Positions 22,343 to 24,731 of a stretch of DNA of 35,482 nt are shown in pieces; positions within the stretch are counted from its first letter, which is position 1, and every line of letters starts with the position of its first letter. Made by a program: the position numbers and the translations under genes. The notes beneath the pieces were generated by a model. The model made no database searches, had not been told where the DNA came from, and saw only the letters and a list, made by a program, of their open reading frames with translations. The DNA lies in the NCBI GenBank assembly GCA_026395675.1, contig JAPLYF010000030.1, forward strand, positions 1 through 35,482, given 5' to 3'. This DNA is from Candidatus Parcubacteria bacterium. Its GTDB lineage: Bacteria > Patescibacteriota > Patescibacteriia > CAIXNZ01.

Positions 22343-23452
22343 TTAGATTAAATTTGAAAAAAAGTTAGAAAATACTTTGCTGTAGCGCAAAAGATCCTGA
22401 AAGGTAATTACAATGATCAAAAGCATAAGCAGAGAAAAACCAATGGTATTAATTAAAGATTCTATTTTTTGGGTCATTGGCTTGCGTCTAATTTTTTCAA
22501 TAAATAGAAATAATAGTCGTCCGCCATCCAGGGCCGGGAAAGGTAAAATATTAATAATTGCCAAATTTAAAGAAAGCAGAGCTGTAAATTGCAAGAGATA
22601 AATAAATCCCAATTTAGCAACCTGGCCAGTTAAAACTGCTATACCAACCGGCCCGGAAACTTGCACCCCAAGTGGTTTGCCAATTACTAAATTTTTAATA
22701 ATATTGGCAAAAGCCAAGACAAATTCCTTGGTTAAAATGCCGGTTAATTTAAAGCCGTGCCAGATGGCTTGTGGTATGCCATAAGAAACAGTGCCGGTCT
22801 CAACCAAGCTCATTCCAATTCCTCCCTTGCCCTGGCCAATATCAGCAATTTCGATTTCTTTAGTTAAAATCTGGCCTTCACGGCTAAACTGATAAGTGAT
22901 TTTCTGGCCAATTTTACCTGATGTATAATCAATCAAATTTTGAACACTGGTTATTGGCTGGCCGTCAACTGACAAAACAACATCGCCAATTTGCACATCA
23001 GCTGCTTGGGCCGGTTTATCATCCAAAATAGCCACAACCTGAATTTTATAATTTTTAACTAAACCCTTAGCCAGGGCTTGCTGATCTACTGCTTGCGGCA
23101 AACCCACCATATAACCAAAAGAAAGCAATATTGCGCAAAGCAAAAAGTTCATGATTACCCCTGCTACTAAAACAATGGCTCGTCGCCAAGGTTTTTTACT
23201 GCCAAAACTATCAGGCACATTTTTCTCTTCACCATCCTCGCCTTTTATCTTGCAAAAGCCGCCCAAAGGTATTGAATTTATTGAATAAATCACGCCATCT
23301 TTGCCTTTCTTGCCCCAAATTCTTGGTGGGAAACCAAAGCCAAATTCCTCGACTTTCATGCCCATTTTCTTAGCCGTAATAAAATGGCCAAATTCATGGA
23401 CAAAAACCAAAAGACCTAAAACAATTAAAAAAATAGCTACTGTAATTAACAT
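22343..23452 (-). CDS. rseP: RIP metalloprotease RseP (M50, PDZ)
   Basis: HEFGH, FGFGFPP, PLGGFC, NILPFPALDGG. Confidence 0.95.
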   Translation of the reverse strand: MLITVAIFLIVLGLLVFVHEFGHFITAKKMGMKVEEFGFGFPPRIWGKKGKDGVIYSINSIPLGGFCKIKGEDGEEKNVPDSFGSKKPWRRAIVLVAGVIMNFLLCAILLSFGYMVGLPQAVDQQALAKGLVKNYKIQVVAILDDKPAQAADVQIGDVVLSVDGQPITSVQNLIDYTSGKIGQKITYQFSREGQILTKEIEIADIGQGKGGIGMSLVETGTVSYGIPQAIWHGFKLTGILTKEFVLAFANIIKNLVIGKPLGVQVSGPVGIAVLTGQVAKLGFIYLLQFTALLSLNLAIINILPFPALDGGRLLFLFIEKIRRKPMTQKIESLINTIGFSLLMLLIIVITFQDLLRYSKVFSNFFSNLI

Positions 23453-23518
23453 GTATTTGCTAAAGATTATTAATTAACTTACTTTAATTTTAGCTTAATT
23501 AAAAATAAATATCAAATC

Positions 23519-23547
23519 TTGACAGATTTCTTAAACTATGCTAACAT
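23519..23547 (+). promoter_or_regulatory. Sigma70-type promoter with extended -10
   Basis: TTGACA-17 bp-TAACAT preceded by TGC. Confidence 0.7.
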
Positions 23548-23550
23548 ATT

Positions 23551-23848
23551 ATTACAAAATTGTTGATCTAGGCTGGCCGCATAAGCGGTTGGCTAAGTGG
23601 GGCTAAGCATTCTTGCACGGTTCCCGGATCAACGTCGGGTTTTAGGCGGCTGGATAAAACTCCGAAATAAGGAGTGGGGCCCAAACCAGCCAAGAGTTTT
23701 GGGCGTAACAACGGAGTTTGATGCGCTACCTGATGGAGGGCTAAAAACGGTAAAATCGCGCGATCCAAATTTAGCAACCTCCCGGCCAAGCAATTGGCAA
23801 AAAACTCTCTATTCGTAATCAAAGCGGAAGTTTAACTTCCGCTTTTTT
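23551..23848 (+). ncRNA. Candidate structured ncRNA of unknown family
   Basis: GC-richer than flanks, own promoter and terminator, at least six helices with G-U pairs and a GCAA tetraloop. Confidence 0.6.
23821..23848. terminator. Intrinsic terminator, probably shared with murI
   Basis: AAAGCGGAAG-TTTAA-CTTCCGCTTT TTT. Confidence 0.85.
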
Positions 23849-24731
23849 ATTTTAATTCAATTTTTTCAAACTCAATCCCCTTGCCAAACCATTTTTCCCC
23901 CAATTCCTGATAAAGTTCTGATAAATCTGTGACAAAAAATTTAATATTGGGAACCGCCGAGGTTGTCATGGTGAGCATAGTCGAACCATCAACCGAGGCG
24001 GCTTTATCCAATTTACTTTCAATCTCATTATGTCTGGCTAAGTAATCAGCCAAGGACTCAGCCACAATTTCCCCTGAATTTAAAACTTTTGTTTGAATAC
24101 CCATAATCCCCTTAACTTCTTTTAACAAAATCGGATAATGGGTACAGCCCAAAATTAAAGTATCAACTTTAGCCAATTTCAATGGCCGCAAATAATATCG
24201 TAAAATCTTTTTGGTTTCCGGCCTATTTTCCCAGCCCTCTTCAATCAAAGGGATGAGCAAAGGACATGCTTGCTGTAAAACTTCCAATTGCGGCTTTTCC
24301 GCCTGAGGCGGATCCGCCTTTGGCGTAAACTTTTCAATTTCCCGAATATAGGCCTGGGAATTAATAGTGCCTTTGGTCCCGATTACTCCAATTTTATTTT
24401 TCGCAACCAAAACAGCTTTTTCAACTACAGGCCTAATTACTCCCAAAACTCGCCTGTCAGGATAATTTTGCAGTAACCATTCCTGCTGAATTTTCCTTAA
24501 AGCTTTAGCCGAAGCAGTATTGCAGGCAATAATTATTAACTCGCAATCCTGCTTAAATAAAAAATTAACTGCCTGCTCTGTAAATTTATAGATTACATCT
24601 TGCGAACGGTTGCCATATGGCGTCCTTGCATTGTCACCCAAGTAAATGTAATCGTATTGAGGCAGTTTTTTTACAATTTCTTTTAAAATAATCAGGCCAC
24701 CCAGGCCTGAATCAAAAATTCCTATTCTCAT
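23847..24731 (-). CDS. murI: Glutamate racemase with two palindromic insertions
   Basis: IGIFDSGLGG, PYG, IACNTAS, LGCTHYP. Confidence 0.96.
   Translation of the reverse strand: MRIGIFDSGLGGLIILKEIVKKLPQYDYIYLGDNARTPYGNRSQDVIYKFTEQAVNFLFKQDCELIIIACNTASAKALRKIQQEWLLQNYPDRRVLGVIRPVVEKAVLVAKNKIGVIGTKGTINSQAYIREIEKFTPKADPPQAEKPQLEVLQQACPLLIPLIEEGWENRPETKKILRYYLRPLKLAKVDTLILGCTHYPILLKEVKGIMGIQTKVLNSGEIVAESLADYLARHNEIESKLDKAASVDGSTMLTMTTSAVPNIKFFVTDLSELYQELGEKWFGKGIEFEKIELK
24294..24325. repeat. Family C palindrome inside murI
   Basis: CTTTTCCGCCTGAGGCGGATCCGCCTTTGGCG, identical to 20607-20638. Confidence 0.9.

Follow-up and report, generated by a model that had tools for sequence, protein, structure and literature searches.

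What occupies the spacer between the rseP-like and murI-like genes of a Candidatus Parcubacteria bacterium, and what kind of molecule does it give rise to? The locus lies on contig JAPLYF010000030.1 (assembly GCA_026395675.1), of which positions 1 to 35,482 were analyzed and are referred to below as the window. Positions 23553-23852 of the plus strand form a promoter-to-terminator unit that specifies a structured non-coding RNA of ~290-300 nt, and the GC content is 0.50-0.54 in the RNA vs about 0.2-0.45 in the flanks. The original prediction had described an unclassified structured RNA at this place, and the description is borne out: neither the window nor any homolog matches an Rfam family, and the homologs show covariation. 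According to our analysis, the RNA very probably represents a real and new family of structured non-coding RNAs that is not contained in Rfam 15. It is best explained, and in our judgment likely explained, as the product of a stand-alone gene for a stable, trans-acting, pseudoknotted RNA, whose function is a matter of proposal only.

A search of the whole 35-kb window with all 4227 families of Rfam 15 gave no match at the gathering score. When positions 23400-23950 were searched at E ≤ 10, only weak matches were obtained, almost every one of them on the terminator and none anywhere near the threshold. For nine homolog loci, the only match was to isrL, with 20.4 bits vs a gathering score of 35. 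The models of OLE, ROOL, GOLLD, raiA and HEARO matched neither at the gathering score in the window nor at E ≤ 10 in 23400-23950, and no riboswitch, ribozyme or Intron_gpI model matched the window RNA even at E ≤ 10. Our searches of the literature on non-coding and structured RNAs of Patescibacteria (the candidate phyla radiation, CPR) yielded no description of this RNA.

Ten homologs were found beyond the window RNA, which makes 11 sequences in all. Short conserved blocks common to all of them served as cutting points, and separate folding of the resulting pieces returned the same set of hairpins. The promoter and terminator that had been predicted for the window were both located, and the TTGACA-17-TAnnnT promoter arrangement and a terminator are kept in 11 of 11 sequences. 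In the window, which belongs to genome G000 (1.04 Mb, 89 contigs, 92% complete), the following elements were delineated:

23519..23547, + strand: predicted sigma-70-type promoter, consisting of a TTGACA -35 element (23519-23524), a 17-nt spacer and a TG-extended -10 element TAACAT (23542-23547)
near 23553-23555, + strand: transcription start, predicted from the promoter position
23556..23561, + strand: conserved unpaired 5' tail AAAAUU, leading straight into P1 (10 of 11 sequences have AAAAUU, AAAUUU-like or AAAAUC; GAAUU by eye in G004)
23562..23633, + strand: P1, a branched hairpin domain with G23562-C23633 as its closing pair (GUUGAUC/GAUCAAC), 18-72 nt among the homologs
23634..23639, + strand: P2 5' strand GUCGGG, pairing with 23729-23734
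23645..23692, + strand: P3 hairpin, with the stem GGCUGG (23648-23653) / CCAGCC (23686-23691)
23693..23698, + strand: pseudoknot 5' strand AGAGUU, pairing with 23803-23808
23699..23728, + strand: P4 hairpin, variable and optional (none in G012)
23729..23734, + strand: P2 3' strand CCUGAU (CCCGAU in most homologs)
23735..23782, + strand: P5, a long hairpin (GGAGG.../...CCUCC) that begins with G right after the P2 3' strand
23756-23763, + strand: palindrome UCGCGCGA at the P5 tip, with the core GCGC at 23758-23761
23785..23798, + strand: P6 hairpin GCCAA-GCAA-UUGGC (all 11 sequences have a hairpin here, each with a sequence of its own)
23799..23808, + strand: A-run and pseudoknot 3' strand (AACUCU, 23803-23808)
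23821..23852, + strand: predicted intrinsic terminator, an 11-bp stem (23821-23845) followed by a U-run, abutting the convergent murI-like gene, whose stop codon is at 23847

Read from the 5' end, the fold consists of the AAAAUU tail, P1, the 5' strand of P2, a UUA linker, P3, the 5' strand of the pseudoknot, P4, the 3' strand of P2, P5, a UA linker, P6, an A-run, the 3' strand of the pseudoknot, a spacer and the terminator. P2 is a helix of 6 bp, which encloses P3, P4 and the pseudoknot 5' strand; the partner of the latter lies beyond P5 and P6. P1 and P5 abut P2 directly, P3 and P4 are placed inside the P2 loop, and P6 stands before the 3' pseudoknot strand. This arrangement is an H-type pseudoknot core surrounded by five variable hairpins; within the core, the sequences of P2 and of the pseudoknot helix (AGAGUU/AACUCU) hardly vary. 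The near-invariant core comprises ~40 nucleotides, namely GUCGGGUU, AGAGUU, CCCGAUGGAG, UCCUA and AAAACUCU. The length of the RNA in the relatives ranges from 215 to about 470 nt: G013 and G011a carry ~140 nt of extra hairpins before the terminator (L026, L030), and in G086 alone an extra structured 5' domain of ~100 nt (L148 1374-1477) precedes the conserved AAAAUAUUG tail. The window RNA has all the features by which the family was recognized, i.e., the tail, P1, P2, the pseudoknot, P5 directly after CCCGAU, the promoter and the terminator.

Covariation supports P1, P2, P3, P5 and the pseudoknot; P4 and P6 are derived from the folding of single sequences. The closing pairs 2-7 of P1 show two to four standard pair types each and are paired in 9-11 of 11 sequences, according to a script count that mis-registered G004; the script took the place of alignment A14, which was not end-anchored. 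In alignment A12, which comprises eight sequences and was fitted to the model, a procedure that favors pairing, 99% of the cells of P2 and P3 are paired and 8 of 13 pairs changed on both sides, including all seven pairs of the P3 stem. The covariation score of 0.582 for these two helices was reached by none of 500 shuffles, and slid controls gave 0.025-0.124. The first pair of P2 is G-U in ten sequences and U-G in one (G004); apart from this, P2 varies from G-C to G-U in G000 and has a U-U in G012, and is otherwise invariant. For the pseudoknot and the base of P5, the plain MAFFT alignment A13 of 11 sequences showed 92% paired cells, with 4 of 10 pairs changed on both sides and a score that no shuffle (0/500) reached. 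The third pseudoknot pair is A-U in eight, U-A in two and G-C in one of the 11 sequences, and the pairs at the base of P5 are distributed as G-C 9/A-U 2 and A-U 10/G-C 1. The full-length MAFFT alignments (A2, A8) were poor in the variable hairpins.

A large part of the helices drawn in the original prediction can be recognized in this fold. GTTGATC(23562)/GATCAAC(23627) forms the covarying base of P1, and GCTGGCCGC/GCGGTTGGC a sub-hairpin within P1 that is common only to homologs with a long P1; GGAGG-GCTAAA/TTTAGC-AA-CCTCC corresponds to P5 and GCCAA/TTGGC to P6. The pairing AGAGTTTT/AAAACTCT, proposed as an alternative one, is real in that it forms the conserved and covarying pseudoknot, but it is constitutive, and no evidence of the suggested structural switching was seen. 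Other pairings did not survive the comparison. The putative kissing loop GGCTGG(23648)/CCAGCC(23686) is the ordinary nested stem of P3, with no loop-loop contact. GGGTTTTA/TAAAACTC and GCCCAAA/TTTGGGC compete for the bases of P2, P3 and the pseudoknot and are not kept in the homologs. Finally, AAACTCCG/CGGAGTTT and the closure ATTAC/GTAAT are peculiar to the window RNA or located in uninformative A/U-rich sequence, the flanking leaders involved in the closure being A/U-rich in all homologs.

The tip of P5 deserves separate consideration. In A13, the four GCGC positions are either invariant or conserved to 90% or more and thus equal the core in conservation, while the surrounding stems differ; by eye, GCGC is present in 9 of 11 sequences. 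The loop in which it lies differs in size: G000, G013 and G011a have 4 nt and a palindrome lengthened to 8-10 nt, the G010 group has 7 nt, and G012, G004 and G086 have about 11-19 nt, including A-runs on the flanks. A self-complementary loop made of G and C only suggests that two copies of the RNA may pair with each other; binding of a symmetric partner to the palindrome is an equal possibility.

The distribution of the RNA is narrow and patchy, as it was found only in two families of Patescibacteria. Nine sequences adjoin rseP and come from eight of the 14 genomes in the family to which G000 itself belongs (G000, G003, G004, G005, G010, G012, G013 and G011). Each genome has one copy except G011, with two tandem divergent copies (L030 590-929 and 1071-1402), each preceded by its own promoter. 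An RseP-guided scan of metagenomes gave 41 loci, of which 33 were checked and three had the RNA: contig L077 carries a new sequence, and the two others are identical to G004. Covariance model R3, run on 151 sampled genomes of the class, picked up the representative of the second family at 29.9 bits (G086; f72, in which one of two genomes has the RNA). This sequence has every element of the family and is situated not beside rseP, but between a glycosyltransferase-like and a priA-like open reading frame (ORF), both named by reading their translations.

The homologs beside rseP were reached via synteny: one BLASTN match in G005 showed a syntenic look-alike, and the rseP locus was then fetched from all 14 genomes of the family. 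BLASTN of the RNA against 60 relatives gave terminator-level matches only. Among the covariance models, R1 was built from two near-identical seeds and was too specific; R2 and R3 represent sub-ranges of the RNA, the latter from P2 to the start of P5 with eight seeds. Within the family, R3 recovered known loci only (42-79 bits, 7 of 14 genomes), with no additional copies at E ≤ 1; it misses G012, since this sequence is devoid of P4, and it scores the window RNA, itself one of the seeds, at 42 bits (E 6.5e-7) in G000. When R3 was applied to 40 relatives of G086, eight weak matches (E 0.009-0.8) appeared, all in coding-like DNA, and were rejected by eye. A strict three-block pattern run on 401 genomes of the class (113 families) gave true matches only in family f1 and in G086; four extra matches were rejected, of which that in G028 was read and three were judged from the matched text only. 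An exact-pattern scan of genome contigs gave 29 matches vs ~30 expected by chance (a rough figure), two of them true (L057 and L062); this strict pattern would miss at least 6 of 9 family sequences owing to sequence or spacing, and is uninformative on absence elsewhere. The loose pattern used within the family produced mostly chance matches, as many as the reversed control. The sensitivity of the searches outside the family is limited, and their negative outcome is to be read as "not found in those searched."

Several observations weigh against the explanation of the locus as a stand-alone RNA gene. Besides the fitting of A12 to the model, the covariation of the pseudoknot stems from two lineages, G013/G011a and G012, which makes its support good but not overwhelming. 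The family is small (11 sequences) and partly redundant (G010/G003/L077; G013/G011a), so that the independent covariation events are few. At the P5 tip, G005 has a self-complementary version formed via G-U pairs only, and the second copy of G011 (G011b) has none; in G000 and G013, GCGC sits in a 4-nt loop on a short A/U-rich stem, which must open for kissing. In 6 of 14 family genomes, neither the loose pattern nor R3 located the RNA, which is therefore dispensable; the rseP site is without it in G001, which belongs to the same genus, and in G002, G006, G007, G008 and G009. It is also missing at the syntenic site of L069, the closest metagenome relative (RseP 94% identical), where a small membrane-protein gene stands in its place. 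No conserved gene neighbor accompanies the RNA, since the flanking genes differ between the two families, and the neighborhood indicates neither a partner protein nor a ligand. Both ends of the putative transcript are predicted. Finally, the plus strand folds with -105 kcal/mol (z = -3.36 vs shuffles), but the minus strand reaches z = -3.70, so that folding energy alone cannot choose the strand.

The assignment to the plus strand follows from the G-U pair in P2 and the many other G-U pairs, which are compatible with this strand only. The absence from close relatives leads us to regard the RNA as accessory rather than housekeeping. Judging from the promoter and terminator, it would be transcribed from its own unit, and the near-consensus promoter in 11 of 11 sequences may point to high-level synthesis. 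Contigs of runs X2 and X3 carry the RNA region without differences.

The coding features next to the RNA or overlapping it are as follows:

22343-23452, - strand: RseP-like site-2 protease gene, the divergent flank of the RNA (named by reading the translation)
23847-24731, - strand: MurI-like gene, the convergent flank of the RNA (named by reading the translation)
23597-23818, + strand: 73-codon ORF starting with GTG, overlapping the RNA

Among the relatives, the rseP-murI spacer is a variable hot spot, where other mini-units with promoter and terminator, genes for small membrane proteins and palindromic repeats rich in GC occur. In G004 (L019 2950-3400, and likewise in L082 and L083), three further small units with promoter and terminator come after the RNA, and G001 (L017) has an unrelated, structured-looking sequence at the RNA site. 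GC-rich palindromic repeats lie upstream of rseP in the RNA-less metagenome relatives L070, L073, L079, L084 and L085. Small predicted membrane-protein genes with their own promoters were noted just downstream of the RNA terminator in the group of G010, G003, L077 and G012 (L020, L023, L077, L018). A small membrane protein beginning with MSYL replaces the RNA in L069 and L086, and in G013 (L026) it comes after the RNA.

How might a stand-alone trans-acting RNA with this fold work? H-type pseudoknots usually form compact cores with A-minor or triple contacts. In the RNA described here, P1, P2 and P5 might stack end to end into such a compact core, and the A-rich linkers might dock on the G-C-rich helices of P2 or the pseudoknot through A-minor or triple contacts. 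The invariant core and the A-rich linkers would then constitute a tertiary center recognized by a protein or a small-molecule partner. The palindrome at the P5 tip would join two RNAs through loop-loop or extended-duplex contacts, or bind a symmetric partner. The RNA would act in trans via the binding of a partner, possibly as a P5 dimer. A scaffold made of RNA or of RNA and protein, with self-association mediated by P5, is the form of this proposal that we put forward tentatively, as a possible one with chances clearly below even.

A different explanation is that the RNA senses a ligand, in the manner of a riboswitch-like small RNA, or is a ribozyme, the pseudoknot core being the pocket or active site and the hairpins its scaffolding. 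The conservation of ~40 core nucleotides amid varying and optional hairpins is like that of aptamers and ribozymes; the first P2 pair remains a wobble throughout (G-U in ten, U-G in one), and the order of helices resembles the P3/P7 pseudoknot of group I introns. Nevertheless, the models of riboswitches, ribozymes and group I introns remained without a match, and no association with a metabolic gene is kept between the two families. In the window, a convergent gene follows the terminator, so that no gene is regulated in cis; this and the lack of an aptamer match speak against a riboswitch class of Rfam. The defining features of a group I intron are likewise missing (no match to RF00028 at E ≤ 10, an own promoter and terminator, no tRNA in the window), in line with the absence of flanking exons or tRNA. 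We therefore consider ligand sensing or catalysis unlikely. Still less likely, and to be taken as speculation, would be a novel RNA class, self-assembling or catalytic, that is limited to ultra-small Patescibacteria, in which a group-I-like pseudoknot core would be the active site or pocket and at least two copies would be joined via the P5 palindrome into a particle made of RNA only.

It might also be supposed that the RNA is a component of a mobile or defense-type system, such as a guide, a template or an antitoxin RNA. This would explain its patchy presence (8 of 14 family genomes, one of the two genomes of f72) in a variable spacer with mini-units, small membrane-protein genes and palindromic repeats, as well as the tandem duplicate in G011. 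On the other hand, no gene like those for reverse transcriptases, nucleases, transposases or Cas proteins adjoins any of the 11 copies, the flanks being of the housekeeping kind as judged from their translations. The RNA is a single-copy element in all genomes but G011, and no terminal repeats or target-site duplications were seen, although no systematic search was made for them. In our view, such a role is improbable.

The possibility of a very divergent housekeeping RNA, i.e., signal recognition particle (SRP) RNA of the 4.5S or large type, 6S RNA, RNase P RNA or transfer-messenger RNA (tmRNA), is largely refuted and has a very small residual probability. The original prediction had likewise set aside RNase P RNA, tmRNA and SRP RNA. 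No tRNA or tmRNA was called in the window (ARAGORN for tmRNA), and G000 has both RNase P RNA (C31:3383-3775, 99.2 bits, RF00010) and tmRNA (C68:4906-5298, 158 bits, RF00023) outside it, which rules out these two identities. The places of SRP RNA and 6S RNA do look empty in G000: the SRP RNA models (RF00169 and RF01854, small and large) matched neither the window nor any other part of the genome at E ≤ 10, RF00169 matched none of 14 family genomes and none of five other genomes of the class, and the 6S RNA model (RF00013) matched neither the window nor G000. However, the protein partner of SRP RNA was not found in G000 either. PF02978 (SRP_SPB) and PF00448 (SRP54) gave no domain match, none of the ORFs of at least 150 amino acids contains DT[AS]GR, and tblastn with Ffh of E. 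coli gave a best E-value of 4.3 (controls: L19, 2e-14; S16, 2e-11). SRP RNA was ruled out on the grounds of the missing model match and the missing Ffh. 6S RNA, which is a single long hairpin with a central bubble, was ruled out because its model gave no match and the covariation-supported fold is a branched pseudoknot; the absence of the RNA from 6 of 14 family genomes is a further argument against a housekeeping role.

Two observations on these pathways stand apart from the RNA itself. The score of the G000 RNase P RNA is below the Rfam gathering score of 100, so that standard annotation would overlook it. In addition, the SRP pathway is seemingly missing in G000, where neither Ffh, FtsY nor SRP RNA was found, and PF00448 matches only 2 of 151 Patescibacteria genomes of at least 90% completeness. 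CPR genomes are expected to encode Ffh and FtsY, and the result for G000 and its relatives is at odds with this expectation; no paper on a missing SRP pathway in these bacteria was found. A tblastn search of G000 with TrmD of E. coli gave no match at 1e-3.

A small protein gene can be dismissed as practically without chance: the 73-codon ORF and an 84-codon ORF on the minus strand of the locus do exist, but neither is conserved in the ten homologs (longest ORFs of 32-87 codons on varying strands), the spacings between conserved blocks differ by non-multiples of 3, tblastn of the three longest G000 ORFs of the locus against the homologs gave a best E-value of 0.13, Pfam returned no family for the ORFs of the locus, and the substitutions in the stems are compensatory, which is not the pattern of codon-type conservation without covariation.

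A stable, trans-acting, pseudoknotted RNA encoded by its own gene thus appears to be the most plausible product of the locus. Patescibacteria account for a large part of bacterial diversity, and almost nothing is known of their non-coding RNAs; a family with 11 members in two families of these bacteria, five covarying helices including a pseudoknot and no Rfam model is a well-supported addition. The size of 215-300 nt suits direct biochemical study and cryo-electron microscopy (cryo-EM), and the near-invariant core and the palindromic loop provide hypotheses testable by mutation. A new functional class would be at hand if the RNA were a ribozyme, sensed a ligand or assembled itself into a particle; if it were only a protein-binding small RNA, it would be an ordinary addition to the catalog.

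Among known systems, the closest in general character are the orphan ornate non-coding RNAs, i.e., the raiA motif RNA, OLE, ROOL, GOLLD and HEARO, all of which have Rfam models and some of which are reported from recent cryo-EM work to self-assemble by loop contacts. They are likewise stand-alone or loosely associated RNAs of a few hundred nucleotides, with pseudoknots, covariation, a patchy distribution and functions unknown at the time of discovery. The RNA of the present study differs from them in showing no match in sequence or structure, in its core, made of one helix and one pseudoknot of 6 bp each and bearing five hairpins on its periphery, and in its occurrence in only two families of Patescibacteria; OLE, ROOL and GOLLD are, moreover, larger.

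The tip of P5 may be compared with the dimerization initiation site of human immunodeficiency virus 1 (HIV-1), since retroviral dimerization sites use palindromic kissing loops. Common to both is a self-complementary 4-6-mer made of G and C only, often flanked by A, at the tip of a hairpin, as in G004, G086, G012 and the G010 group. The differences are that one belongs to a viral genome and the other to a bacterial non-coding RNA, and that in G000 and G013 the palindrome runs into a short stem and leaves a loop of only 4 nt.

With the P3/P7 core of group I introns (RF00028), the RNA shares the order of helices (a 5' hairpin, the 5' strand of helix A, a hairpin domain, the 5' strand of helix B, the 3' strand of A, a hairpin and the 3' strand of B), and its size of 215-300 nt is that of small bacterial group I introns. 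Unlike the introns, it has a promoter and a terminator and no exons, does not match RF00028 at E ≤ 10, and carries the additional hairpin P6 between the P8-like hairpin and the 3' strand of the pseudoknot.

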